Shown in pieces: positions 28,398 to 44,119 of a DNA stretch of 64,000 bases; positions within the stretch are counted from its first letter, which is position 1, and every line of letters starts with the position of its first letter. Under the pieces are notes generated by a model, which was not told the DNA's origin, ran no database searches, and was given only the letters and a program-made list of their open reading frames with translations. The position numbers and the translations under genes are program-made. This DNA comes from Gammaproteobacteria bacterium. Its GTDB lineage: Bacteria; Pseudomonadota; Gammaproteobacteria; JAKDMP01. Location: assembly GCA_027018875.1 (NCBI GenBank), contig JALUYA010000032.1, positions 26,567 to 90,566 on the forward strand, given 5' to 3'.

Positions 28398-28712
28398 GTT
28401 GAATCTACTCCCCACTATCAAGATAAGATCGCGGCCAAGATGAGTCAAAAATATGACAAGACGAAATTATTGCGCCTCGTTCCTCCCGCACGAATTTCTT
28501 GTATCTCTCCGGCCTGCCCATCCTACTAGTACATTCGTTCAAAACCCTAGCCATTCATGTTCAACTTAGCCATGTTTTCCCCGTCGGATGCATTTACCGG
28601 TAGTATAACGGGGTTTGGATGGTCGGTCCCTCACGGTGGGTAATCCCCATTCCCGGGTTTGAGTGCCCCGTGAATACACCGGCCTATCCGCTCCACCCGT
28701 GGGAATGCAGTT

Positions 28713-29909
28713 ATGGATGAACTACTATTGACTCGCCAACCGGTTTTCGATACCCGCCTGCAGGTGGTCGGCTACCTGCTGGAACACCATTTCATTGCCG
28801 GGATGGACAACGCCACAACCGCCGGAAATCACCAATCGCAAATCACCGCACTCATTGAAACCGGGCTGGAATATTTGACGGCGGAGCATCGTATTTTTAT
28901 CGCCACCACCCACGCTGATATCGAGTGGCTCATGGAACTTTGCGCCCCACACCCCCAGCTGGGAATCGCCTTGGAATATTCCCCCGACCTGGACCCCGAG
29001 GCCTCCTACCTGGCGCGGCTGTCGGCACAGCGGGGAATCAACCTGGCGTTGTTGAAATTCCCCTACACTCCCAGCCTGTTCCCCTTGTTTTTGCAAGCCG
29101 AAATCGTCATCATTCCGGGTGGGACGACCTCCCCATCCGAACTGGGCGCCTGGCTCCAGCGACTCCAGGGATACCCGGCCCGCGGGTGTGCTTCCGGGCT
29201 CGACACCCAAGCGGATTTCGACGCGGCCAAACAGGCCGGGTTCGAGTTATTCCAGGGTCAATTCCTGTCTCACTCCGATAGCTGGAGCAACCGCAAAATC
29301 CCTCCCAGCCTGATGGCTCCCCTGGCCTTGCTGGCACAACTCCAGAACCCGGAAATCGCCGTCAAGGATATCGAGGACCTGGTAAAGGCCGATGCGGCGC
29401 TCAGCTACCGGGTATTGCGCTGGGTCAATTCCGCCTATTACGGGATTGAGATCGAAATCGAGAGCATCAGCCATGCCATCGTCTATCTCGGCGTCGACCA
29501 ACTCAGGAATTGGCTCGGCCTCATGGCCCTGTCCGGCCTGAAACCCATCAGTGCGGAGCTTTTGGACATGGCCGCCATTCGCGCCAGGATGGCGGAGGTT
29601 CTCGCGCCCCTGCTCGGCCTGAACCCCGGCAAGGCCTTTACCCTGGGCCTGTTTTCCCTGCTCGATGCCATCATCCAGGCACCGATACGGGAAATATTGG
29701 TCTCGCTGCCCTTGAGCAAGGACCTGAAGGCCGCCCTGGAGGAGGGAACCGGGCCTTATGCCCGGCTGCTGAGCCTGATCAAAAATTATGAGCAGGGCCA
29801 CTGGAGTCAAGTCGTGAATACCCCCGTTCCTGCGGCTCAATTGGGAGAAGCCTATCTCCAGGCCATCGAATGGACCAATGCACATCGCCTCTCGGATACC
29901 CCCCGCTAG
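28713..29909 (+). CDS. degenerate-EAL plus HDOD domain protein (likely c-di-GMP-related signalling/effector protein)
   Basis: N-terminal EAL-like fold with QPVFD...YLLEHHF replacing EALxR and no DDFGTG; C-terminal HDOD-like region (AVKDIEDLVKADAALSYRVLRWVNSAYYG...HAIVYLGVDQLRNWL). Confidence 0.7.
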   Translation: MDELLLTRQPVFDTRLQVVGYLLEHHFIAGMDNATTAGNHQSQITALIETGLEYLTAEHRIFIATTHADIEWLMELCAPHPQLGIALEYSPDLDPEASYLARLSAQRGINLALLKFPYTPSLFPLFLQAEIVIIPGGTTSPSELGAWLQRLQGYPARGCASGLDTQADFDAAKQAGFELFQGQFLSHSDSWSNRKIPPSLMAPLALLAQLQNPEIAVKDIEDLVKADAALSYRVLRWVNSAYYGIEIEIESISHAIVYLGVDQLRNWLGLMALSGLKPISAELLDMAAIRARMAEVLAPLLGLNPGKAFTLGLFSLLDAIIQAPIREILVSLPLSKDLKAALEEGTGPYARLLSLIKNYEQGHWSQVVNTPVPAAQLGEAYLQAIEWTNAHRLSDTPR

Positions 29910-30007
29910 CCAACCTCTCCTTGCCTGCCCCGCCCGGGCGACGCGGATCCCGGAAAGAGAACCCCAAATAGCTCACCCCCGGCACCACGCGCACCAGCTC
30001 GATTCGA

Positions 30008-30625
30008 TCATCCCCGGACCGGGTCCCCGGTATCATCGGGCGTACCGGGTGGGTCGCCTTCGGCCTCCAGGCGTTCATGACGTTCACGTAGAATGCGCCG
30101 ATGATAGCGAAAGGCCACCCGGGCGACACCCTGGCGCGCCGCCGGCGACATTTGCTCCAGGCGGGTCTCGATGTGCCACTTGGAACCATCCCCGGAAGGA
30201 ATCACTTGTTGCACGGTCGCCGGCAAGATCAGCGGCATCGGCAAACGCGAATTGAGATACACCTCGACCAGCAGGGTCGCGTCCCGCGGGGGTGCGGTAT
30301 CGCTCTCCCAGGCCAAGGTGTTCTCACCCAGAATCACCGGAACCACGGGAGGCGGCTCGAACTGCCGCCGCAGCCACATGCCGAACAAGGCGATCAGCAA
30401 GCCCAGCCGGGTCTCGGTCCGGGCCTGTGGATCCTCCCCGACCGGCGTATCCCGATAACTGCTTTCCAGCTCTTCCAGCCAGACCTGATTAGCCAAAAGC
30501 GCCTCATTGTCGTGCATGATGGCGTTCAGCACCCGGGTCTCGGGTATTACCGCTTCCCGCCAGCTCAGCCCGAGGCGTTGATGCAACTTGACCCCGTCAT
30601 TGCCGCTATGCGGATCCGTCTCCAT
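30008..30625 (-). CDS. hypothetical protein, last gene of the fliC-flaG-fliD-fliS string
   Basis: 205 aa from ATG 30623-30625 with GAGGTGG RBS 9 nt upstream; overlaps fliS 3' end by 20 nt; no family recognised (not FliT-sized, no PilZ motifs). Confidence 0.4.
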   Translation of the reverse strand: METDPHSGNDGVKLHQRLGLSWREAVIPETRVLNAIMHDNEALLANQVWLEELESSYRDTPVGEDPQARTETRLGLLIALFGMWLRRQFEPPPVVPVILGENTLAWESDTAPPRDATLLVEVYLNSRLPMPLILPATVQQVIPSGDGSKWHIETRLEQMSPAARQGVARVAFRYHRRILRERHERLEAEGDPPGTPDDTGDPVRG

Positions 30626-31007
30626 TTCCGGCCACCTCGTTCCACGCAAGACGCAAATTTTCCACCACCGGGCGACATTCGGCAAGCAGTTCGGGATCAT
30701 TGAAAATGTTGGCCCGGGCCAGCCGGTCCAGGAGAAAGCGGTATAGGCCCTCCAGATTCATGGCCAGCTCACCGCCCGCTTCGAAATCCAGGGCGGCCAG
30801 AAGATGTTCCACCACGCGAAAGGCGCGATCCAGGGCCTGTGCCCGGGCGGAAACATCACCGGATTCGAATCCCTGGTAGGCGCGGCGCAGGTATTCGCTC
30901 AACCCGTCGAAGCCCAGGGCCACCATGCGCGCGGGATCCATACCGACCGCACGGGTGCTGCGATAGGCCGCTACCCCTATTCTGGTTACGGCTCCGTCTG
31001 CATTCAT
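30606..31007 (-). CDS. fliS: flagellin-specific export chaperone FliS
   Basis: 133 aa; ...YRSTRAVGMDPARMVALGFDGL...ALDRAFRVVEHLLAALDFEAGGELAMNLEGLYRFLLDRLARANIFNDPELL... FliS family pattern. Confidence 0.85.
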   Translation of the reverse strand: MNADGAVTRIGVAAYRSTRAVGMDPARMVALGFDGLSEYLRRAYQGFESGDVSARAQALDRAFRVVEHLLAALDFEAGGELAMNLEGLYRFLLDRLARANIFNDPELLAECRPVVENLRLAWNEVAGNGDGSA

Positions 31008-31034: not shown

Positions 31035-32981
31035 TTAAGGGGTTTTGGAACCGGACCCACCCGTGCCGGTATTGGAGCCGGAATTAGTCCCGAAGTAATT
31101 GCTCAGGTAGGTTCCCGTCTGCTGCAACTGCGCCAGCGTCTGTTCCATCTGGTTGAACTGCGCCTGCAGCAGTTGGGTTTGCGCCTGCACATTCTGCTGC
31201 AGGGTGGAGATGCGCTGGTTCAGGCTGTCTATCGTTGAATTGATGCTGTTGGTAGCCGCCACAATCGCCCCGTTTTGGGTATCGAGCACATTGCTCAACA
31301 GGGGGTTGAGCTGCTGGTAGAGCCCACTGGAAACCGTAACCGAACCGATATTCCCGGTGGCCGCGCTGGTCAGGTTCAAGTTCAGGCCATAGGCCGCCCC
31401 GGTCCCCGTTACCTGCGCCTGCTGGCCGGTTCCGGTGGTGGCCTGGCCATTGACCGTTGCGACCACATCCACCCCCGTGCCCGTCAGCGTGGTGGTGCCG
31501 ATCCCGCTTTGCCCGGCAGCCGGCTGGTTCGATACCACGCTAAACTGCTGGCTGCTGCCATAGGCGGTGCTGTACAGCTTCAGGTATCCATTGCTGTTTA
31601 CCGCGGTGAGCCCATCGAGTCCCTGCTGGGTAAGCGCCGCGTTGATATCGCTGACGATAGTTCCGATGGTGCTCCCCGCGGCCAACGTAACCCCGACCGA
31701 GGTGGTACCCGAAGTGACAGTAAGGGTCTCGCTCGCGGCGATACCGCTTGCCGGCACCGCGCTCGAGCCGGTCAGGCTCGCCTGGCTGGCGGGAGTGGTG
31801 ACATCCACCGCATAGGTACCGGGCTGAGTCTGATCCCCGGCGGACACATACTGGATGCCGCTGCCGGTACTCGATCCGATGCGCCCGAACAGCCCGGCAA
31901 CCGCCGTGAAATTGTCCTGCAGCGCCGTGGTCAGGGTCCCGCTATCGAGGCTGAGGGTGCCATCCTGATTGATTGTCAACCCCACCGAGCCCAGCCCATT
32001 GTACTGGCTGCCCAGCGGGACTCCCTGGCCGAACCCGCTAATAGCATTGAGCAACTGCGTGCGCACCGATTGCACTTCGGGGTTCCCCAGCAGCGGTCCG
32101 GCGGTCTGGGTCGTGGCGTCATACTTGGTCAGGTCGTTGATGGTATTCATCGCCCCGTTGAAAGCAGTGACAAAGTCCTGGACCGCCTTGACCACGCTGC
32201 CGACATCCTGGCTGACCGTCAACGTCGCCGAGCCCGGCTGCAGCAACTGGATAGTGAGCCCCGGAACCGTGCCGGAAAGGGTATTGGTGGTGGAAGTAAC
32301 CGCGATGCCGTTGATGGTGGCGGCCGCATCCTGGGCCGCCGCGCTTTCGGTCATATTCTTGGTGGTGGCGTTATAGTTCAGGTCGGCAAGGCTCCCGGTG
32401 GCTCCCGAGACCGTCACGGTAAAGGCATTGGCGGCACCCGGCTGGGTTCCCGCCAGGGTGAGCCGATAACCGCTGCCGTCGTAAATAACCGCCGCCCTGA
32501 CCCCGGCGCCGGCACCGTTAATGGCGCTGGCGATGCCGTTGAGCGTATCGTTCGAGTTGTCGATGCTCAGGCTGAGCGGACTCCCCGAACCAACCTGAAT
32601 CTGTAGTGTTCCCGTGCCGACAACGGTCTGGTCGGCACTGGCGAAAGCGGCCGAATAAAGATCCTGGGCCTGCGCCAAGGCGGTAACCGACAGAGAATAG
32701 GCTCCCGGCGAGGCGGTATTGTCCACCGTAGCGGTGGCCACACCGGTGTTGGAACTGCTCACCGAGCGCTGGCTTAGCGTATTGATATTCGCCAGTCCGC
32801 CCAGGCCACTCTGCAACTGCGCCAGGCCGCTCTTGAAATTACCCCAGGCAGTGAGCTGCGCATTCTCCTGGGCCACCTGGGACTGGAGCTGCTTGATCGG
32901 CGCCTGATAAATCTGGGTCAGTTTTTGAATCAACTGGCCGGTATTGATGCCACTGATGATCCCGGGGATGGAAACGGTCAT
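31035..32981 (-). CDS. fliD: flagellar filament capping protein FliD (HAP2)
   Basis: 648 aa; N-terminal MTVSIPGIISGINTGQLIQKLTQIYQAPIKQLQ and C-terminal ...QNVQAQTQLLQAQFNQMEQTLAQLQQTGTYL coiled-coil regions typical of FliD. Confidence 0.9.
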   Translation of the reverse strand: MTVSIPGIISGINTGQLIQKLTQIYQAPIKQLQSQVAQENAQLTAWGNFKSGLAQLQSGLGGLANINTLSQRSVSSSNTGVATATVDNTASPGAYSLSVTALAQAQDLYSAAFASADQTVVGTGTLQIQVGSGSPLSLSIDNSNDTLNGIASAINGAGAGVRAAVIYDGSGYRLTLAGTQPGAANAFTVTVSGATGSLADLNYNATTKNMTESAAAQDAAATINGIAVTSTTNTLSGTVPGLTIQLLQPGSATLTVSQDVGSVVKAVQDFVTAFNGAMNTINDLTKYDATTQTAGPLLGNPEVQSVRTQLLNAISGFGQGVPLGSQYNGLGSVGLTINQDGTLSLDSGTLTTALQDNFTAVAGLFGRIGSSTGSGIQYVSAGDQTQPGTYAVDVTTPASQASLTGSSAVPASGIAASETLTVTSGTTSVGVTLAAGSTIGTIVSDINAALTQQGLDGLTAVNSNGYLKLYSTAYGSSQQFSVVSNQPAAGQSGIGTTTLTGTGVDVVATVNGQATTGTGQQAQVTGTGAAYGLNLNLTSAATGNIGSVTVSSGLYQQLNPLLSNVLDTQNGAIVAATNSINSTIDSLNQRISTLQQNVQAQTQLLQAQFNQMEQTLAQLQQTGTYLSNYFGTNSGSNTGTGGSGSKTP

Positions 32982-32992
32982 TCAAGTTCTCC

Positions 32993-33445
32993 TCAAATCT
33001 TCGAATCCACAAATAACCCTGAACCCATGCCGTTGACCACCAGGCGCGCCACCACGGGCGAGGCCTGATCGGGCGGAATCCGAAAATAGACCTGGTGGGT
33101 CATGCGGTCTATCAACTGCAACACGATCCCGCTCCCTCCCTTGGCCCCGGATTCGCCGAGTCCGACCTGCAGTACCACGGCCGATCGTGGTGGGAAATGG
33201 GCCTGTACCTGCCTTGCCAATGCCTCGGCATGACGCAGTTCAGCCGCGGACGGAGCCGCGGATAGCGGGGACCGCCGGGCGCTCCGCGGGGCGCGTGCCC
33301 TCCCGTCGTCACGCTTGGTCTCCGACGCGATAACGGCTGTTCGGACGCCGCGGCGCGGAGCCTGGCCGGCAACGGCGGCGCCCGCGCGCGGTACCCCCGC
33401 TGCCGTGGGTTGCGGTGCGGGTTGAATGGTCACGGCATGAATCAT
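32993..33445 (-). CDS. flaG: flagellar protein FlaG
   Basis: 150 aa; C-terminal ...VLQLIDRMTHQVYFRIPPDQASPVVARL matches FlaG family core; position between fliC and fliD. Confidence 0.7.
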   Translation of the reverse strand: MIHAVTIQPAPQPTAAGVPRAGAAVAGQAPRRGVRTAVIASETKRDDGRARAPRSARRSPLSAAPSAAELRHAEALARQVQAHFPPRSAVVLQVGLGESGAKGGSGIVLQLIDRMTHQVYFRIPPDQASPVVARLVVNGMGSGLFVDSKI

Positions 33446-33514: not shown

Positions 33515-34990
33515 TCAGGGCAGCAGCTTGAGGAAGCTCTGCTGCAATGCATTGGCCTGCGCCAGGGTGGAAATACCCGCCTGTTGCAGAATCTGCTCGC
33601 GGGTCAACTGCGATGTGACCTGGGCGATATTGGCATCCTGGACCGTGGAACGCGCCGCGGTCAGGTTGGTCGCCGCCGTCTGCAAGTTGCTGGTGATGCT
33701 CTGAATGCGGTTTTGTATCGCGCCCAGTTGCCCCCCCTGCTGGTTGAGTGCCGAGATCGCAAAATCGACGATGCTGATCGCCTTGTTGGCTCCCTGCACC
33801 GTGCCGACATTCACGCTCGACACACTTTGCAACGTGCTCGCCGACGTTATCCCGATATTGCTGGCGCCGGAGGTGATCGCAAAGCCCTGGGTGGATTGCG
33901 CCGTCACCAGGCCCTGGAATAACCCGGTAGCGGATCCCGAGGTGATCGCGGTTCCCGTCCCGCCGGACGCCACCGCCGTCAAGCTGGTTCCGCTGACGCC
34001 GGTAAAGCCGGTGATGGAGATGTTCGCACCATTGGACTGGGTCAAAACCAGGTTGCCGTTGGCGTCCTCGCTCGCGGCGATACCGGTGGTGGCCGTGTTA
34101 TCGTTGACCGAGCTGATCAGCCCCTGCAGGTTGGTCGCGGTGATATTGACCGTATTCGTCTGCGCGGCGGTCGTACCGTTGCCCAATGTGAAGCTGATCG
34201 AGCTGCCGTTGAAGTTCGCCGTAAATGCAACGCTGGTCTTCGCCGCGGCGCTGACCCCGGTGTTCTCGGTCACCGCGTTGATGGAGGCGGCAATGCTTTG
34301 TGCGGACTCCGTCGCGGCGGTCACCGTGACGCTCTGGGTGCCGGTGGAGCCGGCAATCGTGACCGCCCCCGAGGTGAATGCCCCACCCGAGGTGGTCCCG
34401 GTAAAGGCCAGCCCATTCACCGTCGAACCCGACGTGCCACCGAACAGGGTGCTCCCTGCACCGGTTTCATTCACCCCGATCGACTTCGCGCTGGCATTGG
34501 CGATCGAAACATTGAGGATCTGGTTGGCGTTGGCGCCCACCTGAAACTGCTCGCCGGCAAAGTTCCCGTTCAAGATGTTCTGGCCGTTGAACTGGGTCTG
34601 CTGGGCGATGGTGTTGACCTGCGCGGTGAGTTGCCCCACCACGTTTTGCAGCGCCTGGCGGTCGGTGACGCTGTTCGAGCCGTTGGCCGCCTGCACCGCG
34701 ATGGTGCGGATCTTCTGCAGAATGTTGGTCTGCTGCTGAATGGCGCCGGTGGCGGTCTGGACCAGCGAAACGGCCTGGTTGGCATTGGAAATCGCCTGGT
34801 TCACCCCGTTAAGCTGGGTGGTGAACCGTTGCGCAATCGCGTAGCCGGCCGGATTGTCCGCCGGGCTGTTGATCTTCAGGCCCGTGGACAATTCCTCGAC
34901 CGCCCGATTCAAACCGGCGGCGGTGTTGTTGAGGGCGTTGCGTGCGAACAGCGCCCCCAGGTTGGTGTTGATTACCCCTGAAACTGCCAT
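33515..34990 (-). CDS. fliC: flagellin FliC
   Basis: 491 aa; conserved N-term INTNLGALFARNALNNTAAGLNRAVEELSTGLKINSPADNPAGYAIAQRF and C-term TREQILQQAGISTLAQANALQQSFLKLLP; Thr/Ser/Gly-rich variable middle; AAGGAG RBS 8 nt before ATG. Confidence 0.9.
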   Translation of the reverse strand: MAVSGVINTNLGALFARNALNNTAAGLNRAVEELSTGLKINSPADNPAGYAIAQRFTTQLNGVNQAISNANQAVSLVQTATGAIQQQTNILQKIRTIAVQAANGSNSVTDRQALQNVVGQLTAQVNTIAQQTQFNGQNILNGNFAGEQFQVGANANQILNVSIANASAKSIGVNETGAGSTLFGGTSGSTVNGLAFTGTTSGGAFTSGAVTIAGSTGTQSVTVTAATESAQSIAASINAVTENTGVSAAAKTSVAFTANFNGSSISFTLGNGTTAAQTNTVNITATNLQGLISSVNDNTATTGIAASEDANGNLVLTQSNGANISITGFTGVSGTSLTAVASGGTGTAITSGSATGLFQGLVTAQSTQGFAITSGASNIGITSASTLQSVSSVNVGTVQGANKAISIVDFAISALNQQGGQLGAIQNRIQSITSNLQTAATNLTAARSTVQDANIAQVTSQLTREQILQQAGISTLAQANALQQSFLKLLP

Positions 34991-35005: not shown

Positions 35006-38000
35006 TTAAGCGTTATATCGGCGTACCTGCCGGGATTCAATGGCGGGCGCCTCGCCCGCATCCCCTTTAACGGCACCCCGCGCGGGGACTTTAGAGCCCG
35101 GCAGCCAGGCGCCCAGCACCTCCTCCAGGTGATCCTCCAACAACCAGCGTTCGCGCACCAGCCGCTGCAGTTCACGCCCCTGCGCCGCGAGCGCCTCGGG
35201 CTCGGCCAGGCGTTCGCGGATGGCGCGGATCCAGTCGCGGCGGCGCGGACCCACCCGCGTGAGCGGCAACGCCCCCCGGTAGGCGACGACATCGCTGGCG
35301 ATCACCGGGTAGCCGCAGGCGCCATACTCGAGCAGGCGCAGGTTACTCTTGGCGGCATTGAATGGAGAGGCGGTGAGCGGCGCCAACGCGAGATCGAGCG
35401 CCAGCGCCCGCAGCGCCCGGGGGTAGGCGCCCAGCGGCACCGCCGGGTGTAACTCCTTCACGTAGCGCCGCAGCGGTTCGGGGCACATGCCGAAGAACAC
35501 CCAGTCCACCTCCCGCGCCAGGGCCTCGACCACGCCGGCGATCAGGGCCAGGTCGCCCGCATGGCCGATACCACCGGCCCAGCCGACACGGGGCCGGCGG
35601 GAGCCTATCGGCGCGGGAGGATCGAACGCCCCCCAAACGCTACGCGGCAGATAATTCGGCCTCACGACCACCTCCGGAGCCAAGTGCCCATAGGCCTCGG
35701 CCAGTGGCTCGGTGGCCACCACCAGGCGGTCACAGAGGCCCACGGCATCGCGCAAGCGGCGCATGATGTCGGCGGGAATCGTGCTTCGGTGGGCACTGGT
35801 AAGCGGCAGGTTGGAAATCAGATCATCCAGCTCGTAGCTGAGAAACGCCCGGCCGGTGCGACGATAGCGGCGGATCGCCTCGATCTGGTGATCCTCGAGC
35901 TGGCGCTGCAGCAGCACCGCCTGGGGTTGGACGCGCTCGATCTCGACCGCGTTGAGGGGAAGTTCGAAGCTCGCCTGCGCCTCGGCCAGCCCGGCGCCCA
36001 CCAGGGCCCGCGCCGGGGCCAGCACCCGGTACTCGCCGCAGCCCTGCCGATCCGCCGGGTGGCACAGGATCCGTGGCGGCGCCACCCGCGCCAGGTACCG
36101 CGGCGCCGGCAGTGCCGCCTCGGGCGTAAACCCCTTCCCGCGCAAACTAAGGTTTGGGTTATAGACCGGATCGGCCGCGATCCGCGGCAACCAGCGCGAC
36201 AGCATCACCCTGGATTCCTCACCAAACTGCGCCGACTGCCGGGTAGCGGAAACGCCTTCAACCTGGGATCGCTGGCTTTTCGAGCCTTCGTGAAGCAGGG
36301 TTGCATAGGGGGTATAGACCACGCGGCGGCCGCGGCGACGCAACTTGAGGCACAGGTCCACATCATTGAAAGCCACGGCCAGGTCGTCCTCATCCATGCC
36401 GCCCACAGCCAGGTAGTCCGCCCGGGAAAGCAGCAGGCAGGCCGCCGTGACCGCCGAGTAATCCTGGGCCAGCCGCGCCCGCCCGAAGTAACCGGGCGCA
36501 TCCGCCGCCAATCCGAGGAACGGATGATCCGCCGGCGCGCCGTCGCCGATGCCGAGCACCACCCCCGCGTGCTGCACCCGACCGCCGGGAAACAACAGCC
36601 GGGCGCCGACCGCGCCGACCCCGGGCTGCAGCACCCGGGCCAGCATCTCCCGCAGCCAGTCAGAATGCAGGGCCGCCGTGTCGTTGTTGAGCAACAGCAG
36701 GTATTCGCCCCGGGCGGCGGCGGCCCCGCGGTTGATCATGGCACTGAAGTTGAAGGGCCCGGGACAGGGCAAAACCCGCAGCTTCCCGTCGAGTTCCCGC
36801 GCCGCCGCGATCAGCCCGTCGAGGTACTGCCGGGCCTCGGGCTCTCGGCTGTCGTTGTCGAGCACGATCACCTCGAGGTCGGGATAGTCGGTGGCGCCGA
36901 GCAGGATTTCCAGGCAGCGCTGCAACTGCCCCACCTCGTCCCGCGTGGGAATCAGGATGGAAACCGGCGGTGTCCGCGGCAACGGGTAACACACCCGGAA
37001 GCTCGCCGGAAAGGGCCCGTCCCGGACGGTCGCGCCGGCGGCGGTGCGCGCCAGGTGCGCGCCGAGGGCGGCCCGCGCCGCCGCGATCATCTCCTCGATG
37101 CTCACTGCGCAGCGACGGGACTGGGCGTCGCGGTGATACAGAATATCCGGCAGGTGCACCAGGGTATCGCCCCCGGTATGCTCCCAGACTCGTAGCGCAA
37201 GATCGTAATCCTCGGCGCCGGGGTAGCGGTCATCCCAGCCCAGGTCCCCCAGAACGTCCTGGCGCACCAGCATCACCCCCCCCAGGTAGGGCATGCTGCG
37301 CAGCAGTTCGGGGTTGAAATCCGGCTTGTAGTGCGGGTTGACCCGCTGCCCCGAAGCCTCCAGCGTGTCCTCGTCGCTATAGAGCAGGGTCGCCCGCGGG
37401 TGTTCGGCGAGAAACCGGCGGCATAACCCGACCGCCTCCGGGTGCAGCCGGTCGCCGGCCTCGAGCAGCCCCACCCAGTGCTGCGGGTTGCGTGGCAATC
37501 CCGCGGAAAACGAATGCAGGGAAGCTTTTCCTGCGATCCGCCATTGGATCCGGGGGTCGGCCGCAACCTCATCCGCCGCCGGGCCGGCGGCCAGCACCGT
37601 CAGCCGCCAGTGACCATCGCCCTGGGCCAGCAAGCTGGCGACCGAGGCCCGGGCCGCTTTCTCACGCCCCGCAAGAGCGATACAGACCAGGTGAACCGCT
37701 CCCGCCCCGGCGGGAGCGGGGCTCGCCCGGACCGCCCGCTGCCACACGGCTTGATGCGCCCGCCACCGCGCATAGGCATCGGGCTCCGCCGCCTGCGCCC
37801 GGATGAAGGCCTCCCCCGCCTCGCGACACCAGTCCAACCCGGCGGAACGGTGACCGGGATGGTGCGCCTCTTCCACCAGGCAGCGCCAGGTTTCATACGC
37901 CGGATCGAGTGCCCCCGGCGCGGGCGCCGCCGCCCCGTCGCCGTGATGCCTCCAGGCCCCGTGCACCGCGGCCGCCGCCCGTTCGCGATCCAGTCCGGGA

Positions 38001-39583
38001 AGATCCAGCGCCGCCAGGGTGGCCCCCGGATCGCGCACCAAATCCTCGTACACCACGACCACCCGCGCCAGATCCGCCGTGTCCCGTTCGATCGCCAGCA
38101 TGTGCTCCAGCCACAGTGCCAGCGCCTGCTCGCGCTCCATGCCGTCGCGGCGGGCGAGCGAGGCGGCCACCGCCTCCGGGTGACGCACCACCACCACCGC
38201 CATTACCCGCGCGGCCGCCGCCTCGAGCAACGGCTTCCAGAACGGCAACAGACGCGCCATCCGCGGCTCCTTGAGGCCCCATAAACCGGTTCGTGCAACG
38301 GCTCGCGTGAGCGCCATGCGCGCCGCCGGGCAATAGGGCGCAAGGCCCGCGAGGGCCGCAGGATCGAGGTCCAGGCCCGGCGCGTCCCAGCGGCCGCCGC
38401 GCGCCGCAAGCAGCGCCTCGTCGATCTCCAGCAGCGACAGCGCCTCGTGATAGCCGCCCGGATTATCGGCCTGGGGCGGCAATTGTTCCGTCCCGAAATC
38501 GATGCCACCGGCCTCCAGCGCCGCGGCCATCGCCGAGGTGCCGCCGCGGTGCATACCCAGCACCACGACGGCGTGCCCGCGCCGGGCGCCGGGATGCCAG
38601 GCCTCCCGGGCGCGGGCGAAACTCTCCAGGTGCCCCGCCGTGCTTGCGGCCCAGGTATAACCCGACACCTGCTCCCGCCCGGCCCGGGCCAGCTCCTCGC
38701 GCCGCCCGCGCGACTCGCTCAACTGCCGCAACGCGGTGCCAATCCCCACCGGGTCGCGCGGATCGAAGCGCAGGTAAGCCTCGCCGTAGAGTTCGCGTAG
38801 CGCCGCTATATCGGCCGCCGCGACCGGACAGCCACAGGCCATCGCCTCGGCCACCGGCAAGGCGAAGGTCTCGTGCAGCGACGGGCACACCAGCGCCACC
38901 GCGGAGCGGTAGTAGGCGGCAAGATCCGCCGCGTCGAGCGCGCGGGCGATCAGGCGCACCCCCGCGGGGAGCGCGGGCCCGGCATAACCCGGCAGCACCA
39001 GGGTCAGCGGCAGCCGCCCACTAGCGGGCAGCCGGCACCAGGCATCGACCAGGCGGGCAATGTTCTTCTTCGGCTGCCACTGGGCCACGCAGAGCAGCCC
39101 GACCGCTTCCTCCCGCACCCGGCCGGCGGGCGTATAGACCCCTTGATCGATCCCGTGCGGGACGACATCGATTCGCGCCGCGGGAAAGCCGAGGTGGTGC
39201 ATCGCCTCGGCGGCCGCCGCCCGCGAGGGCGTGATCAGCCGATCGATGCGCCAGCGCCGCTGTACCCACGCAGCCAACTGGTGCAGTTGGCCCGCGGTAC
39301 CCCTCGCGGCCGCCGCCGGCGTGGCGTAGTAATCCTCGGGCGGAAGCGCCAACGGCCCGACCCCATGCAGGGTCACCACGGTGGGGCGGGCCGCCTCGAG
39401 CGGCGGTAACGCCCGGGGAAACAACCCACCGGCACAGTAGGGATCCCAGTACAGCTCGCCATCCCCGCCGGGGTGGACCTCGATCCCGCCTTCGCCGAGC
39501 CCGGCAACGATCCGGTCCCGGTAGACCGCGAGACTCAGGGGCACCGGCCCGGGCGCGGGCGCAAGCGTGATCCGTGCGGTCAT
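35006..39583 (-). CDS. 1525-aa multidomain glycosyltransferase: GT4 (GT-B) - sulfotransferase-like P-loop domain - GT2 - GT2 - C-terminal GT-B domain; predicted flagellin glycan assembly enzyme
   Basis: Single uninterrupted ORF. aa 1-330 GT4-like (ETFALPVAEAMACGCPVAAAD). aa ~335-545 sulfotransferase-like (5'PSB-like VLGMHRGGTS, 3'PB-like VVRHPEAVAASL). aa ~600-830 GT2 (LYSDED). aa ~860-1090 canonical GT2 (VSILIPTRD, DNDS, NNDT, GGMDE...AFNDVDLCLKLRRRG). C-terminus GT-B (EYGACGYPVIASD). Sits between flgL and fliC. Confidence 0.8.
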   Translation of the reverse strand: MTARITLAPAPGPVPLSLAVYRDRIVAGLGEGGIEVHPGGDGELYWDPYCAGGLFPRALPPLEAARPTVVTLHGVGPLALPPEDYYATPAAAARGTAGQLHQLAAWVQRRWRIDRLITPSRAAAAEAMHHLGFPAARIDVVPHGIDQGVYTPAGRVREEAVGLLCVAQWQPKKNIARLVDAWCRLPASGRLPLTLVLPGYAGPALPAGVRLIARALDAADLAAYYRSAVALVCPSLHETFALPVAEAMACGCPVAAADIAALRELYGEAYLRFDPRDPVGIGTALRQLSESRGRREELARAGREQVSGYTWAASTAGHLESFARAREAWHPGARRGHAVVVLGMHRGGTSAMAAALEAGGIDFGTEQLPPQADNPGGYHEALSLLEIDEALLAARGGRWDAPGLDLDPAALAGLAPYCPAARMALTRAVARTGLWGLKEPRMARLLPFWKPLLEAAAARVMAVVVVRHPEAVAASLARRDGMEREQALALWLEHMLAIERDTADLARVVVVYEDLVRDPGATLAALDLPGLDRERAAAAVHGAWRHHGDGAAAPAPGALDPAYETWRCLVEEAHHPGHRSAGLDWCREAGEAFIRAQAAEPDAYARWRAHQAVWQRAVRASPAPAGAGAVHLVCIALAGREKAARASVASLLAQGDGHWRLTVLAAGPAADEVAADPRIQWRIAGKASLHSFSAGLPRNPQHWVGLLEAGDRLHPEAVGLCRRFLAEHPRATLLYSDEDTLEASGQRVNPHYKPDFNPELLRSMPYLGGVMLVRQDVLGDLGWDDRYPGAEDYDLALRVWEHTGGDTLVHLPDILYHRDAQSRRCAVSIEEMIAAARAALGAHLARTAAGATVRDGPFPASFRVCYPLPRTPPVSILIPTRDEVGQLQRCLEILLGATDYPDLEVIVLDNDSREPEARQYLDGLIAAARELDGKLRVLPCPGPFNFSAMINRGAAAARGEYLLLLNNDTAALHSDWLREMLARVLQPGVGAVGARLLFPGGRVQHAGVVLGIGDGAPADHPFLGLAADAPGYFGRARLAQDYSAVTAACLLLSRADYLAVGGMDEDDLAVAFNDVDLCLKLRRRGRRVVYTPYATLLHEGSKSQRSQVEGVSATRQSAQFGEESRVMLSRWLPRIAADPVYNPNLSLRGKGFTPEAALPAPRYLARVAPPRILCHPADRQGCGEYRVLAPARALVGAGLAEAQASFELPLNAVEIERVQPQAVLLQRQLEDHQIEAIRRYRRTGRAFLSYELDDLISNLPLTSAHRSTIPADIMRRLRDAVGLCDRLVVATEPLAEAYGHLAPEVVVRPNYLPRSVWGAFDPPAPIGSRRPRVGWAGGIGHAGDLALIAGVVEALAREVDWVFFGMCPEPLRRYVKELHPAVPLGAYPRALRALALDLALAPLTASPFNAAKSNLRLLEYGACGYPVIASDVVAYRGALPLTRVGPRRRDWIRAIRERLAEPEALAAQGRELQRLVRERWLLEDHLEEVLGAWLPGSKVPARGAVKGDAGEAPAIESRQVRRYNA
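35015..35045 (-). promoter_or_regulatory. possible sigma28-type -10 element (GCCGATAT) for fliC embedded in the 3' end of the glycosyltransferase ORF
   Basis: Minus strand reads ...TTGAATCC-N11-GCCGATAT-AACGCTTAAGTAAGGAGCGAAATC-ATG; -10 matches GCCGATAA 7/8, -35 weak; only 15 bp separate the GT stop and fliC ATG. Confidence 0.3.
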
Positions 39584-40896
39584 GGTTGTTCATCCTCCCG
39601 CCGCACCTGCCACAGCGTGGTGCCGCGATAGCGCAACAGGGCCGTCCCCGGCGGGGCACCGGCGCGGGCCAGGGTAGTGCTCAAGGGCTCGTGCCATGCG
39701 GTAATAGCACCGGCGTATTCTCCCGTGGGTTGGGTCTCGAAGCCGGCCACCAGCAGACACCGGCCGGTACACCGCCACAGGTGTTCGACGAAGGCGGTGT
39801 AGGCCGCCCGCTCGTGCTGGTGAATCAGAACATCGAGGCAAACCACCAGGTCCGCCGCCGGTGCGGTCTTTGCCCAGGCCAGGAAATCGCCGGCGACGAA
39901 GCCAAGATCGGGCCACTTCCGGCGTAATCGCTCAATTTGCTCCTCGGCGACATCGATCCCGGTATAGCGGGCTCCCCGCGGCAACGCGACGGATTCCCAC
40001 AAAACCCGATCACCACAGCCGACGTCGAGAATTGAATCGGGCGCGACCTCGTGCATAACGCGTGCAAGACACGCCTTTTTCTGCCGCCCCACGGAACCGC
40101 GCGAGCCAAGGCCCGAGCCCAGCTCGGGGTTTATTCGGTAGCGATCATTCCAGAAGCGGCGGTTATCGAACACCGCCCCCTCCCAAGGCGCAGCCACGCC
40201 GGCGGGAAGCCTCCGCCCGGGGGCGGCGAGCACCCGTACCACCGCGCGGGAGCGCTCGAGGGTGCCCCGACCGTCGCTATCGAGAAGCAATTCGCTCCAA
40301 CCACCGGGCAATGGGGTGGAATCCACGTCGCAAGTCAGAATGGGCTTGAACCGCCGCCAGGCGGGCAGTCGTCGAAGCAGATCGAGCCAGTCGGCCAGGC
40401 GCGTGCACCGCACCCAATCCACCGCATCCGGCACCGCGGCATCCGCACGATCGAGTTCGATATAGCGCACCGCGGATTGAGCCTCGACGCGGCGTAGAAT
40501 TTCGCGCCATGGCGTCACCCCACGCGCCAGCCCGGCAATGGCGACGGGCCCGTCCGCGTGGGTGGCGAGACGAAAGGTAAGCGGATCCCCATACAGATCG
40601 ATAACCCCGCGCCCGCGCAACCGCGAGGCAAGCTGTGCCTCGATCCGCGCCCGCGGGGACGGCGGACACAGAAACCGCATTGCCAGTTGCGCATCGAGCA
40701 GCGGGATACGGGCATGATCTTCTCCCCAGCTCCACTCGATCTCCGCACCATAGGCATGCAGGGTGGCAAACTCGGCGGCGGCCGCGGCCAACCCGGTGGC
40801 CTCCTCGGTGAAAGCCGCCTCGCGCCGGGCCCAGGCAAGCACGGTCTGTACATAGGCCAGCGCCCCCTGCGCGGCACCGGGACGGGGAGCCGTCAT
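39580..40896 (-). CDS. two-domain protein with C-terminal class I SAM-dependent methyltransferase (predicted flagellin-glycan methyltransferase)
   Basis: 438 aa; C-terminal ILDVGCGDRVLWESV...ARYTGIDVAEEQ...DLVVCLDVLIH SAM-MTase motifs; ~250 aa N-terminal domain unassigned; ATGA overlaps with flgL (40893-40896) and with the GT gene (39580-39583). Confidence 0.7.
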   Translation of the reverse strand: MTAPRPGAAQGALAYVQTVLAWARREAAFTEEATGLAAAAAEFATLHAYGAEIEWSWGEDHARIPLLDAQLAMRFLCPPSPRARIEAQLASRLRGRGVIDLYGDPLTFRLATHADGPVAIAGLARGVTPWREILRRVEAQSAVRYIELDRADAAVPDAVDWVRCTRLADWLDLLRRLPAWRRFKPILTCDVDSTPLPGGWSELLLDSDGRGTLERSRAVVRVLAAPGRRLPAGVAAPWEGAVFDNRRFWNDRYRINPELGSGLGSRGSVGRQKKACLARVMHEVAPDSILDVGCGDRVLWESVALPRGARYTGIDVAEEQIERLRRKWPDLGFVAGDFLAWAKTAPAADLVVCLDVLIHQHERAAYTAFVEHLWRCTGRCLLVAGFETQPTGEYAGAITAWHEPLSTTLARAGAPPGTALLRYRGTTLWQVRREDEQP

Positions 40897-42155
40897 GGCA
40901 GATAGTTGAACAACGACAGACTCTGCATCTGCACAAACGCCTTGGAGGCCGCCTGCAGGGCAAGGGAGGCCTGGTCGAGCCGGGTGATGACCTGCGGCAG
41001 ATTGGCGTCCTCGAGCCCGGAGCGAATCTGCTTGAACTGCGTCTGCACGGACTGATTGACCTGGGCCGCCGTCTGCGCCGCCTGAATCCGGGTGCCCACG
41101 GCCGCCTGGGTCGATCCGAGACGCGTCTGGGCCTGATCCAGGGACTCGATCACGGTATTGATTGCCTGCATGTTGCGGGCATTCTGGGCCGGCGACGCGG
41201 CCGCCGAAGTCAGCGCGGAATGCAGGTTAAGCAGCGTCTTGAACAGGCTTTGCCCGCGGCTGGGGTTGAGATCGAAGGTATCTCCCGAGGCGGGGTTACC
41301 GGCGAAATTGATCGCCAGGCCATCGAAATTGATCGTCGCCCCCGCGCTGAAGCTCCCGCTGGCCACCTGGGTTGCTCCAGCGTTCCAGCCCGCGCTCCCG
41401 ACCGCACCCGGGCCTCGCATTACGCTATAGTTCAATCCCCCCGAACCGCTGCTGAAGCGTATTTGATAACTGTCGCCGTTGGCCTGCAGGTAGGTGGCGG
41501 CCTGTACCGGATCGGTTACATTTCCCGCCGCGGTCGCCGTTCCGGTATTGGTGCTTCCCGCCTCGATGCTGAAGGTTCCGTTCCCGTCCGCAATGTTCAT
41601 GAACAGGGCGTTTCCCGGATCGCTAACCGGAATGGACTCCCCACTCGATATGGGTAAACTGCGCTGCCCGCCATCGCCGTAGTACTCGACCTGCGTCCCG
41701 CCGTTGTTCAAGGCAAACGGCTGGACATGGGTACGGCTGCCGGCGAACAGGTATTCTCCTCCCGGCCCCTGGGCATTGGCATAGCCGATCAATTGATCGA
41801 GATAGCTCTGCACGATCGCCGCGCCGTTGCGCCGATCCTGAAGGCTCAAGGTGCCATTGGCCATTTGCAGGGCCAGCGTCCGCACCCGGTTGACCAGCGT
41901 CGTCACGCTCTGCAACTGCGTGCTTTCATACCCGAGGGATTGCTGGGCATTGTCGGCGTTCCGGGCCCAGCCGCCGAAACGCTCGAGCGCCGTGTCGAGC
42001 CCGATCACCCGGGCCGCCGCGGCCGGCGCATCGGAGGGGCGGTTGATTTTCCGGCCACTGGAAAGCTGCTGATAATCGCTGTTGATGCGTGACTGCTGCT
42101 CGAGAATGCCGTTAATGGCAATCTGGTAAATTTGGCTGGTGCTGAAACGAATCAT
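40893..42155 (-). CDS. flgL: flagellar hook-associated protein 3 FlgL
   Basis: MIRFSTSQIYQIAINGILEQQSRINSDYQQLSSGRKINRPSDAPAAAARV... and C-terminal ...LEDANLPQVITRLDQASLALQAASKAFVQMQSLSLFNYL flagellin-like termini. Confidence 0.85.
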   Translation of the reverse strand: MIRFSTSQIYQIAINGILEQQSRINSDYQQLSSGRKINRPSDAPAAAARVIGLDTALERFGGWARNADNAQQSLGYESTQLQSVTTLVNRVRTLALQMANGTLSLQDRRNGAAIVQSYLDQLIGYANAQGPGGEYLFAGSRTHVQPFALNNGGTQVEYYGDGGQRSLPISSGESIPVSDPGNALFMNIADGNGTFSIEAGSTNTGTATAAGNVTDPVQAATYLQANGDSYQIRFSSGSGGLNYSVMRGPGAVGSAGWNAGATQVASGSFSAGATINFDGLAINFAGNPASGDTFDLNPSRGQSLFKTLLNLHSALTSAAASPAQNARNMQAINTVIESLDQAQTRLGSTQAAVGTRIQAAQTAAQVNQSVQTQFKQIRSGLEDANLPQVITRLDQASLALQAASKAFVQMQSLSLFNYLP

Positions 42156-42157
42156 GA

Positions 42158-44119
42158 TCACAGACTCAAAATGGAATTGAACAGTTGCGCGGCAATACCG
42201 ATGGACTTGGCCGCCGCCTGAAACGCCTGCTGGTAACGCAACATATCGGCCGCTTCCTGGTTCAGGTTGACGCCGGAAATGCTTTGCTGCGCCTGCTGCG
42301 CCTGGTTCAAGGTCGCCTGCTCGGCGTTCGCGGCCAATTTGGCCTGTTGCCCGGCATTGCCCACCATGCCGGTGAGATTGGCATAGGCCTGGCTGAAGCT
42401 CTCGCTGCCGTTTCCCAGGGTTTGTGCCTGGGCCAGGGCACCCATCGCCAGGGCATTGCGATTATCCCCGGATCCGGCCGGTTGCAATACAAAACTATCC
42501 AGGGTTTTCGGCGCGCTACCCGAGAGGGTTACCTGCCAGTAATGTCCCGCCGGTGCCGGGGGCGAAGGATAGGCCACTGCCAGGGTCGCACCCGAACTAT
42601 AGCTCCCGCTGGCGACCACGCCGCTCGCATCGGAAACCTGGTAGCTGCCGGGTGCCGTGAACTGTAACGTTAACGTCTGGCCGAACTCGGCGGCTGGAAG
42701 CACGGTGGCACCGACGGCGGGCGAAGTCACCACCTGCCCCGGTGAAATCGTCACGTTCCCGGTATTGGTATTGCTCAAGCTCCCGTTCACCAGGCGGCCC
42801 GGACTGGCAACATAGGGCAGAGCGGCGGCCACGGTATTGGGATCCGCCAGCACGGCCTGGATGCCGGTGGCGGCACCGGCCGTGGGTTTTAGCAGGAACC
42901 GGTCACCGTTGGCGGGAGTCCCGCTCACGGTGACGCTCAAGCCGTCGAAGCTCAGCGTGTTGCCGCTCACGGTTGGGCTCACACTCTGCCGGCCCGGCCA
43001 GGTCTGTACTGTCCAGTTTCCGCCCTGGTATTGCAGCTCGTAATTCGCGCCGGTGATTTTTGTGCTATCGGCAAGGGTCGCGGTCAGAATGGCACTGCCG
43101 GTGTTATTGTCGGCGGCGCCGACCTGCGGCGCCGGCACGGCAAACAGAGGCGGCCCGGAGATCCCATTCAGGTCGATACCCAGACTCTGCTGGCGGTTGA
43201 GGTCGGCGCCGACGGCCACGGCGATTTGCCCCAGCGAATTTTGCGCCTGGGCGATGGTGTCCCGGGCGGCGAACAGGCCGCCGAGGGTGCCTCCGGAAAT
43301 GCCGTTCGAGACCACCGCGCCGGAAGGCGCGTAAACCACATCGAGATTTTGCCCGTCCAGGTCGTTGGGCCGGGTCGCCAACTGAAATGCCTTGGAACCG
43401 GCCACCAACGCCTGCCCATTGGCCGTAAACACGCTGTAGCTACCTTGAGATTGCTGCAGCACCGATACCCCGACGAGTTGATTAAGCTGGGTGATCAGGT
43501 GGTCGCGCTGATCCAGCAGGCCGTTGGGCTGCGACGCCCCGGAAGGCTGGCTCGCCCCGCCGATTTCCACGTTCAGCCGGGCGATCTGGGCGGTCAGGGT
43601 ATTCACTTGATCCACGCTACCCGTGATCTGGTCATTGATATTCCGGCGCAGGGAGCGGATGGCCCCGCCGATGGCATTGAAGCGATTGGCCAGCGTGGCT
43701 GCCGCCGACACCACCGCCTGGCGTTCGGTGGCCCCGGAGGGATTACCGGCCAGGTTGCGCAGCGCCTGAAAAAACCCGGACAGGGCGGGAGTCAGATTGA
43801 CCCCGGAAGTTGACAGTATATTGTTCAACTGCGCCATCGAGGTCTGGCGCTGCGCCGCCGCCGCCGATCCCGCCGTCGCCTGCCACAGGCGGGTTTGCGC
43901 AAACTGACTGAAGTTTCGCGTGATCGCGGTAACTTCTACCCCCGAGCCCTGGATAACGCCCGTCTGCCCGTAAGGGACCTGCGGCGCCTGGATCACCGTC
44001 TCGCGGCTATAGCCGGGGCTGTTCGCATTGGCGATATTGTTGCCGGTCGCGGCCAGTCCGGCCCGCGCCGCATCCAATGCCGAGAGGGCGATTCGCGACA
44101 AGGAACTGATGGAACTCAT
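42158..44119 (-). CDS. flgK: flagellar hook-associated protein 1 FlgK
   Basis: 653 aa; MSSISSLSRIALSALDAARAGLAATGNNIANANSPGYSRETV... and C-terminal ...SGVNLNQEAADMLRYQQAFQAAAKSIGIAAQLFNSIL. Confidence 0.9.
   Translation of the reverse strand: MSSISSLSRIALSALDAARAGLAATGNNIANANSPGYSRETVIQAPQVPYGQTGVIQGSGVEVTAITRNFSQFAQTRLWQATAGSAAAAQRQTSMAQLNNILSTSGVNLTPALSGFFQALRNLAGNPSGATERQAVVSAAATLANRFNAIGGAIRSLRRNINDQITGSVDQVNTLTAQIARLNVEIGGASQPSGASQPNGLLDQRDHLITQLNQLVGVSVLQQSQGSYSVFTANGQALVAGSKAFQLATRPNDLDGQNLDVVYAPSGAVVSNGISGGTLGGLFAARDTIAQAQNSLGQIAVAVGADLNRQQSLGIDLNGISGPPLFAVPAPQVGAADNNTGSAILTATLADSTKITGANYELQYQGGNWTVQTWPGRQSVSPTVSGNTLSFDGLSVTVSGTPANGDRFLLKPTAGAATGIQAVLADPNTVAAALPYVASPGRLVNGSLSNTNTGNVTISPGQVVTSPAVGATVLPAAEFGQTLTLQFTAPGSYQVSDASGVVASGSYSSGATLAVAYPSPPAPAGHYWQVTLSGSAPKTLDSFVLQPAGSGDNRNALAMGALAQAQTLGNGSESFSQAYANLTGMVGNAGQQAKLAANAEQATLNQAQQAQQSISGVNLNQEAADMLRYQQAFQAAAKSIGIAAQLFNSILSL

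Follow-up and report, generated by a model that had tools for sequence, protein, structure and literature searches.

We analyzed a 64,000-nucleotide stretch of DNA from a gammaproteobacterium (the window; GenBank assembly GCA_027018875.1, contig JALUYA010000032.1), in which an open reading frame (ORF) between the flagellar genes flgL and fliC encodes a predicted flagellin-glycan assembly protein of 1525 amino acids (aa). A region resembling sulfotransferases (STs) is embedded among the glycosyltransferase (GT) domains of this protein. The best explanation is that aa 335-545 form a catalytically intact ST dependent on 3'-phosphoadenosine 5'-phosphosulfate (PAPS), which belongs to a five-domain flagellin-glycan assembly enzyme and sulfates the flagellin glycan; we assign this reading a probability of approximately 0.65. 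Judging from gene context and domain fusion, the bacterium probably sulfates its flagellar sugars. What we infer here rather than observe is that the domain is catalytically active, that its acceptor is a sugar, that PAPS donates the sulfate, and when the reaction takes place.

The ST domain (aa 335 to 544/545; positions 37949/37950-38581, minus strand) lies in frame within the ORF at 35006-39583. When analyzed in isolation, it matched the Pfam family PF13469 (Sulfotransfer_3) over aa 339-526 (profile positions 2-206 of 216; E-value = 2.2e-5). A search with aa 322-564 detected 123 homologs (E-values down to 1e-34, 30-46% identity), mostly free-standing proteins of 230-420 aa; many of them are already assigned to PF13469, and a few are named sulfotransferase in their source. 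Comparison of a family profile with all PDB sequences gave 41 matches, nearly all of which are STs. The top matches were SULT1A3 (E-value = 6e-7) and tick TPST (7.5e-7), and further matches included other cytosolic SULTs (SULT2B), TPST1, the ST domains of CurM and OLS, HS 3-OST and StaL. With the single sequence, phmmer found only the OLS ST domain (4gox) as a direct match in PDB, through its VRHP...S motif. Profile-profile alignment of the ST family with human TPST1 using hhalign had a probability of 87% (E-value = 4e-6, 179 columns); we treat this result as supporting rather than primary.

We also examined the predicted fold of the domain. An AlphaFold2 model built from the homolog alignment (predicted local distance difference test score, pLDDT, 88.9; predicted template modeling score 0.87) shows one alpha/beta domain built around a central parallel sheet, and solved STs are its nearest folds. 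In a Foldseek search against PDB, ranks 1-29 were occupied by STs only (E-values 2.4e-6 to 5e-3, probability 0.97-1.00), with the CurM ST as the best match, and TPST1/2, OLS ST, Stf1, Stf9, StaL, Teg12, Teg14 and 3-OST also present. Top matches to other P-loop families, which had been set beforehand as refuting an ST, were not seen. Thus, the ST-like domain proposed in the initial annotation is borne out by Pfam, the profile search of PDB, the alignment to TPST and the fold search.

Four segments of the domain correspond to the functional sites of known STs:

38534-38563, minus strand: putative 5'-phosphosulfate-binding loop VLGMHRGGTS, aa 341-350 (R346 corresponds to R78/R79 of TPST)
38444-38446, minus strand: E380, candidate catalytic base, invariant and near the catalytic Glu of TPST
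38261-38272, minus strand: KEPR (family consensus KDPR), aa 438-441 (K438 corresponds to K158/K159 of TPST)
38156-38191, minus strand: putative 3'-phosphate-binding motif VVRHPEAVAASL, aa 465-476 (R467 and S475)

The first of these had already been proposed as a 5'-phosphosulfate-binding motif, and the alignments agree with this proposal: the family loop VLGMHRSGTS pairs with GGMPRSGTT of tick TPST in a HMMER alignment and also aligns to TPST1, and H345, R346, G348 and S350 are invariant both in 50 family members and in all 27 copies found in flagellar loci (see below). K438, P440 and R441 are likewise kept in the 27 flagellar-locus copies, and KDPR pairs with NKDPF of tick TPST and with TPST1. 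For the 3'-phosphate site, also proposed in the initial annotation, the position was correct while its description as RxPxD...S was loose: VVRHPEAVAASL aligns with VRNPKDVAVS of SULT1A3, RDGRAVVHS of TPST and VRHPYAVIES of the OLS ST through its Arg and Ser, and the conserved pattern here is R-x-P-x-x-V-A-x-S-L. In the HMMER alignment, the family motif RhPxeVAASL pairs with the same RDGRAVVHS segment of tick TPST. In the AlphaFold2 model (fragment numbering), the VLGMHRGGTS loop sits between strand E16-21 and helix H28-37, and R467...S475 lies at strand E138-145 and helix H148-159.

The hhalign comparison with TPST1 placed R346 on R79, K438 on K159, R467 on R184 and S475 on S192; E380 falls in the GEE(T) segment, at most one residue away from the catalytic Glu located there. 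In TPST2, Arg78, Glu99 and Lys158 are experimentally supported catalytic residues (PMC10951654). In the 50-member alignment, ten columns are invariant (H345, R346, G348, S350, G360, E380, K438, P440, R467 and S475), and by correspondence to TPST they cover all predicted PAPS-binding and catalytic positions. Among the flagellar-locus copies, R346, E380, K438 and R467 are present in 27/27 and S475 in 26/27. Because these positions are invariant and the loop (G-M-H-R-G-G-T-S rather than GxxxxGK[ST]) has no Walker-A lysine, we conclude that the domain is, as predicted from its residues, a catalytically competent PAPS-type ST, whose activity we infer.

A divergent P-loop kinase or NTPase, which the initial annotation had kept as an alternative, or a catalytically dead structural spacer would be a different explanation of the same domain. 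The folds of STs and nucleotide kinases have a common ancestor, and dephospho-CoA and guanylate kinases do appear in the Foldseek list. However, they enter only at rank 30, with E-values above 5e-3 compared with 2e-6 for STs, no kinase or NTPase family in Pfam or NCBIfam matched the domain at E-value <= 1, and the Walker-A lysine is absent. The kinase/NTPase reading was therefore rejected. The predicted PAPS-binding and catalytic positions are kept across more than 70 sequences (with the single departure at S475 noted above), which a dead spacer would not be expected to do. Together, the kinase and spacer explanations appear extremely improbable.

The protein that carries the ST domain has the predicted order GT4 - ST - GT2-like - GT2 - GT-B, based on the ORF list and Pfam:

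35006-39583, minus strand: the whole 1525-aa predicted flagellin-glycan assembly protein
38594-39583, minus strand: N-terminal GT4-type (GT-B) domain, aa ~1-330 (Pfam Glyco_trans_1_4, Glycos_transf_1 and Glyco_transf_4; E-values 1e-19 to 7e-11)
36974-37903, minus strand: linker with Pro/Gly interruptions (aa ~546-620), then a divergent GT2-like domain extending to aa 870
36275-36970, minus strand: GT2 (GT-A) domain, aa 872-1103 (Glyco_tranf_2_3, E-value = 1.4e-18; Glycos_transf_2, 4e-17)
35009-36253, minus strand: C-terminal GT-B (GT4-like) domain, aa 1111-1525 (AlphaFold2 pLDDT 87.6)

The GT2-like domain has only a weak Pfam match (Glyco_trans_2_3, E-value = 0.003), and it is 30-50% identical across all related loci. 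Foldseek matched the C-terminal domain best to GT4-type GT-B enzymes, which made up all of its top matches (E-value = 7e-12). Homologs of this domain are 48-53% identical; those of Pseudomonas aeruginosa and Xanthomonas oryzae (48-49%) are annotated either as 'O-antigen biosynthesis protein' or as glycosyltransferase. The X. oryzae proteins bearing the former name are called RbfC. A CD0244/TagF-like phosphotransferase activity has been suggested for the P. aeruginosa protein PA1091 (PMC11833859), and such an assignment was considered for the C-terminal domain here and rejected. No Pfam Glyphos_transf match was detected and GT4 enzymes head the fold search; therefore, we name the domain GT-B only.

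The same 1525-aa gene, with the same neighbors, was called whole in an independent Logan assembly, and a second assembled copy of the protein differs at one residue, outside the ST domain. Since two independent assemblies one residue apart share it, the GT4-ST-GT fusion is not an assembly artifact. A search with aa 1-600 found no other protein sharing the GT4-ST junction; it returned separate relatives of GT4 or of ST, and a few ST-GT fusions. The guanine-plus-cytosine (GC) content is 0.71-0.72 at 36001-40000, over this ORF, compared with 0.63-0.66 for the flagellar genes on either side. At third codon positions, GC is uniformly high along the ORF (0.84, vs. 0.77-0.83 in its neighbors), and at first positions it is much higher than in the neighbors (0.77 vs. 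0.52-0.62). The similar third-position and high first-position values suggest that the rise reflects a protein rich in Ala, Arg and Gly and not clearly foreign DNA.

The genes around the ORF are arranged in the order flgK-flgL-methyltransferase-1525-aa ORF-fliC-150-aa ORF-fliD-fliS:

42158-44119, minus strand: flgK, hook-filament junction protein, first gene of an overlapping run
40893-42161, minus strand: flgL, hook-filament junction protein
39580-40896, minus strand: 438-aa protein with a C-terminal class I S-adenosylmethionine-dependent methyltransferase domain (Methyltransf_25/11/23/12, aa 284-376)
33515-34990, minus strand: fliC, flagellin of 491 aa, presumed acceptor (Pfam Flagellin_N and Flagellin_C)
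31035-32981, minus strand: fliD, filament cap (Pfam FliD_N and FliD_C)

Overlaps of 4 nucleotides join flgK, flgL, the methyltransferase gene and the 1525-aa ORF, whose stop codon is 15 nucleotides ahead of the fliC ATG. Pfam FlgK_D1 and Flagellin_N were found on identical genes in L084, and aa 1-271 of the 438-aa protein had no Pfam match. Ser and Thr make up 23% of FliC overall and 32% of its central region. In P. aeruginosa PAO1, O-glycosylation of flagellin requires PA1091 (FgtA), a multidomain GT2 protein whose gene adjoins fliC (PMC11833859). The overlapping flgK/flgL/methyltransferase genes, the 15-nucleotide gap to fliC, the location of the ST-GT module directly after flgL in 26 further loci and the PA1091 precedent point to the flagellar glycan as the target.

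A possible reaction sequence is as follows. The GT modules would build an O-linked oligosaccharide, which in relatives probably contains rhamnose, on the Ser/Thr-rich central region of FliC, in the cytoplasm and before flagellar export. The ST domain would then move sulfate from PAPS onto a hydroxyl of a glycan sugar: R346 of the 5'-phosphosulfate-binding loop and K438 may stabilize the leaving phosphosulfate, E380 may act as the base, and R467 and S475 may hold the 3'-phosphate. The neighboring methyltransferase may methylate the glycan.

To examine the recurrence of this arrangement, one genome per species was scanned; 431 relatives were found and 80 loci kept, syntenic Pseudomonas loci among them. 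No GTDB representative carried a protein more than ~53% identical to the window protein. By domain-wise tblastn and an ST-family hidden Markov model, the ST - GT2-like - GT2 - GT-B segment was found in 26 of the 80 loci, mostly in metagenome-assembled genomes (MAGs) of Stellaceae and other alphaproteobacteria, with one gammaproteobacterial MAG (L058). It lies directly downstream of flgK-flgL in all 26 loci and is followed by fliC and fliD in 23; the other three reach a contig end or have no fliC within the flank. In one locus (L013), rmlD and rmlA are located between the ST-GT gene and fliC, which points to a rhamnose-containing glycan. None of the 80 loci contains a counterpart of either the N-terminal GT4 domain of the window protein (domain-wise tblastn) or the 438-aa methyltransferase protein (tblastn, E-value < 1e-5).

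In the gammaproteobacterial MAG, a methyltransferase domain precedes the ST, and a second giant protein with FkbM-methyltransferase, GT2 and GT4 domains follows. Three large genes are present between flgL and fliC in this genome (L058 8543-22298), which form an unusually elaborate flagellin-modification island; they encode proteins of 1713 aa (methyltransferase, ST, GT2 and GT-B), 1968 aa (FkbM methyltransferase, GT2, GT4 and more) and 813 aa (radical-SAM/SPASM). In two other loci (L043 9794-10889 and L045 9836-11191), the ST-GT gene is split into shorter ORFs within or just past the ST domain, either by sequencing frameshifts or by genuine pseudogenization.

Beyond flagellar loci, the ST domain is, on profile evidence, part of a very large uncharacterized branch of the Sulfotransfer_3/TPST-like superfamily. 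An exhaustive profile search detected 36,413 cluster representatives at E-value <= 1e-3 (17,069 at E-value <= 1e-30), most of which fall outside Pfam's threshold, and many of the representatives are 1000-2200 aa long. In all seven long members scanned, the ST is fused to GT2 and/or GT1/GT4 domains; P0237 and P0263 have a coiled-coil-type Pfam match between ST and GT, and such a match is faint in L013. The C-terminal extensions of several free-standing members resemble coiled coils. Six contigs carrying free-standing homologs were read, and in three of them the ST gene lies beside wzm/wzt and genes for large GTs, whereas the other three contexts were uninformative:

L081, 8001-9224: free-standing ST homolog near wzm/wzt
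L086, 6417-7430: free-standing ST homolog near wzm/wzt
L087, 7785-9002: free-standing ST homolog near wzm/wzt

Two of these ST genes come immediately after a wzt that encodes a Wzt_C carbohydrate-binding domain, and the third is close by. An uncharacterized ST-domain gene is also present between wzt and wbbB in the O-antigen cluster of Aeromonas salmonicida (PMC4483657). The wzm/wzt neighbors and the ST-GT fusions suggest that the family acts on glycans. They also suggest that polysaccharide synthesis dependent on ABC transporters involves an unrecognized class of modifiers that add sulfate and may terminate chains.

This wider distribution bears on the identity of the acceptor. The domain might be a real ST that acts on some other glycan, such as O-antigen, capsule or exopolysaccharide, with the adjacency to fliC being incidental. 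The frequent occurrence of the ST subfamily in wzm/wzt polysaccharide loci is in line with this possibility, as is the name 'O-antigen biosynthesis protein' given to relatives. However, the 26 further loci retain the placement between flgL and fliC, the genes overlap on the flgL side, the GT part adjoins fliC also in Pseudomonas and other loci without ST, and PA1091, likewise located beside fliC, acts on flagellin (PMC11833859). In addition, no exporter, polyprenol-phosphate initiating transferase or ligase was found among the neighbors scanned. Sulfation of another glycan is therefore improbable.

Alternatively, the ST might sulfate flagellin itself on Tyr, Ser or Thr side chains in a TPST-like manner rather than a sugar. 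TPSTs are among the closest relatives in both sequence and structure, and the GM(P/H)RSGT(T/S) and KDP motifs are common to both groups. On the other hand, FliC contains a single Tyr, located in the conserved N-terminal helical region, so tyrosine sulfation of this flagellin is unlikely. Moreover, the ST is covalently joined to four GT domains and has relatives in polysaccharide loci and in ST-GT fusions, and the equally close folds of CurM, Stf1, StaL and 3-OST belong to enzymes with non-protein acceptors. We consider protein sulfation quite improbable; based on the wzm/wzt neighbors, the ST-GT fusions and the single Tyr, a glycan acceptor is favored.

Several observations weigh against a sulfating enzyme of the flagellin glycan. 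The window ST scores below the PF13469 gathering threshold (25.2 bits alone and 19.2 bits in the full protein, vs. 27), and the equivalent domain of L013 reaches 29.4 bits and the family members P0220 and P0200 reach 76 and 53 bits; as judged from these scores, the branch has members on both sides of the threshold, and the copy in the window is a divergent one. The Foldseek TM-scores are modest (0.36-0.53), which is consistent with a compact core plus differing substrate-binding inserts. The alignment of E380 to the TPST Glu is gapped and off by one residue. In Thiomonas, Thiobacillus, Pseudomonas, Silvimonas and other relatives, the GT part is present without the ST, implying that the ST is an accessory decoration and not core machinery. 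Finally, tblastn with Escherichia coli queries found no cysC, cysD or cysQ in the 64-kb window, and no cysC, cysD, cysQ or cysN near the ST-bearing loci.

The sole hit of the PAPS-gene search among the loci was a protein of the adenosine 5'-phosphosulfate (APS) kinase family (PF01583, E-value = 6e-27) in a Curvibacter MAG (L056 9915-10421). This flagellar glycosylation island encodes an FgtA-like GT and no ST of the window family; the products of the genes around the APS kinase gene are a PEP-utilizing enzyme and Glyphos_transf, GT61/TPR and formyltransferase-like proteins. The APS kinase may serve as a dedicated PAPS source, or in another phosphorylation step, for the flagellin glycan.

Comparison with known systems indicated which features of the window protein are shared and which are specific. 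With TPST (human TPST1/2 and tick; PDB 5wrj, 3ap1 and 8w5z), the domain shares the alpha/beta fold, the GMxRSGT(T/S) loop, the KDP lysine and the R...S 3'-phosphate-binding motif at equivalent positions; its conserved Glu aligns at or next to the catalytic base of TPST. Unlike TPST, it is compact (~210 aa), cytoplasmic, without a membrane anchor, only ~17% identical and embedded in a glycosyltransferase, and its acceptor is likely a sugar rather than tyrosine. The CurM and OLS STs (PDB 4gbm and 4gox) are also domains of multidomain assembly-line proteins; however, they sulfate a beta-hydroxyacyl-ACP, which activates it for decarboxylative elimination in polyketide synthesis, whereas the window domain is found in the context of GTs and flagellin.

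Similar to FgtA, the window protein is large, multidomain, GT2-containing and encoded between flgL and fliC, and its C-terminal domain is 48-49% identical to proteins of X. oryzae and of P. aeruginosa, the latter possibly including PA1091. FgtA and the X. oryzae relatives have neither an ST nor an N-terminal GT4. The anionic flagellin decoration of PAO1 is phospho-N,N-dimethylthreonine rather than sulfate, and it is made with PA1088-PA1090 (PMC11833859). In the archaeon Halobacterium salinarum, VNG1056C and VNG1057C sulfate the N-linked tetrasaccharide of archaellins and of the S-layer glycoprotein (PMC11980604). This system differs from the window in that its glycan is N-linked and built on a lipid carrier, its enzymes are free-standing, and there is no homology between archaellum and bacterial flagellum.

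The literature covered, with most subscription journals outside it, contained no report that a flagellar glycosylation locus of bacteria encodes an ST or that a bacterial flagellin glycan carries a sulfate ester; documented sulfation of motility-filament glycans was found only for archaeal archaellins. Known anionic decorations of flagellin glycans are nonulosonic acids and phosphate-linked groups, and the type B flagellin of Clostridioides difficile carries sulfonated peptidyl-amido sugars. The ST fold and flagellin glycosylation are each well known.

WbdD (E. coli O9a) and WbbB (Klebsiella O12/Raoultella) offer another comparison; in these enzymes, which terminate chains in O-antigen synthesis of the ABC-transporter-dependent type, a modifying or terminating module is linked by a coiled coil to polymerizing GTs or works with them. 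As in their loci, members of the ST family occur near a Wzt with a C-terminal carbohydrate-binding domain, and the order ST - coiled coil - GT2 - GT1 is observed. The window protein differs in having a ~75-aa Pro/Gly-interrupted linker (sequence read by eye) and no long coiled coil, and in its presumed protein-linked rather than lipid-linked acceptor. Known terminators of the WbdD/WbbB type add methyl, phosphate-methyl or Kdo, not sulfate. By analogy with these two proteins, the ST domain might act as a glycan chain terminator, in which a sulfate at the non-reducing end stops the polymerizing GT modules of the same polypeptide; we regard this as a tentative and, on balance, doubtful proposal. 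Its extension, that the whole family comprises sulfate-based glycan terminators and that sulfate serves as an export or quality-control tag, is equally speculative.

Some additional features were observed around fliC. The 150-aa ORF between fliC and fliD (32993-33445) has no Pfam match. Genes near fliC-fliD(-fliS), at 25710-30700, encode tPilZ-domain, HDOD and PAS-GGDEF-EAL proteins, which suggests control of motility by cyclic di-GMP. Given the 15-nucleotide intergenic gap, any fliC promoter must fall in the upstream coding sequence. The octamer GCCGATAT at 35015-35022 (minus strand), in the last codons of the 1525-aa ORF and ~25 nucleotides upstream of the fliC start, agrees with 7/8 positions of the sigma-28 -10 consensus GCCGATAA; a clear -35 element was not seen, and a promoter/terminator scan of 33.3-44.3 kb gave nothing above shuffled expectation.

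Flagellin glycans of bacteria influence how filaments assemble, as well as motility, surface charge, and recognition by the immune system or phages. Because at least 27 loci have an ST built into a flagellin glycosyltransferase, sulfation of bacterial flagella is a concrete and testable prediction. The fusion also offers a functional entry point to a large ST branch tied to glycan assembly lines, which may act in chain-length control, and its interest would be higher if the terminator idea were true.

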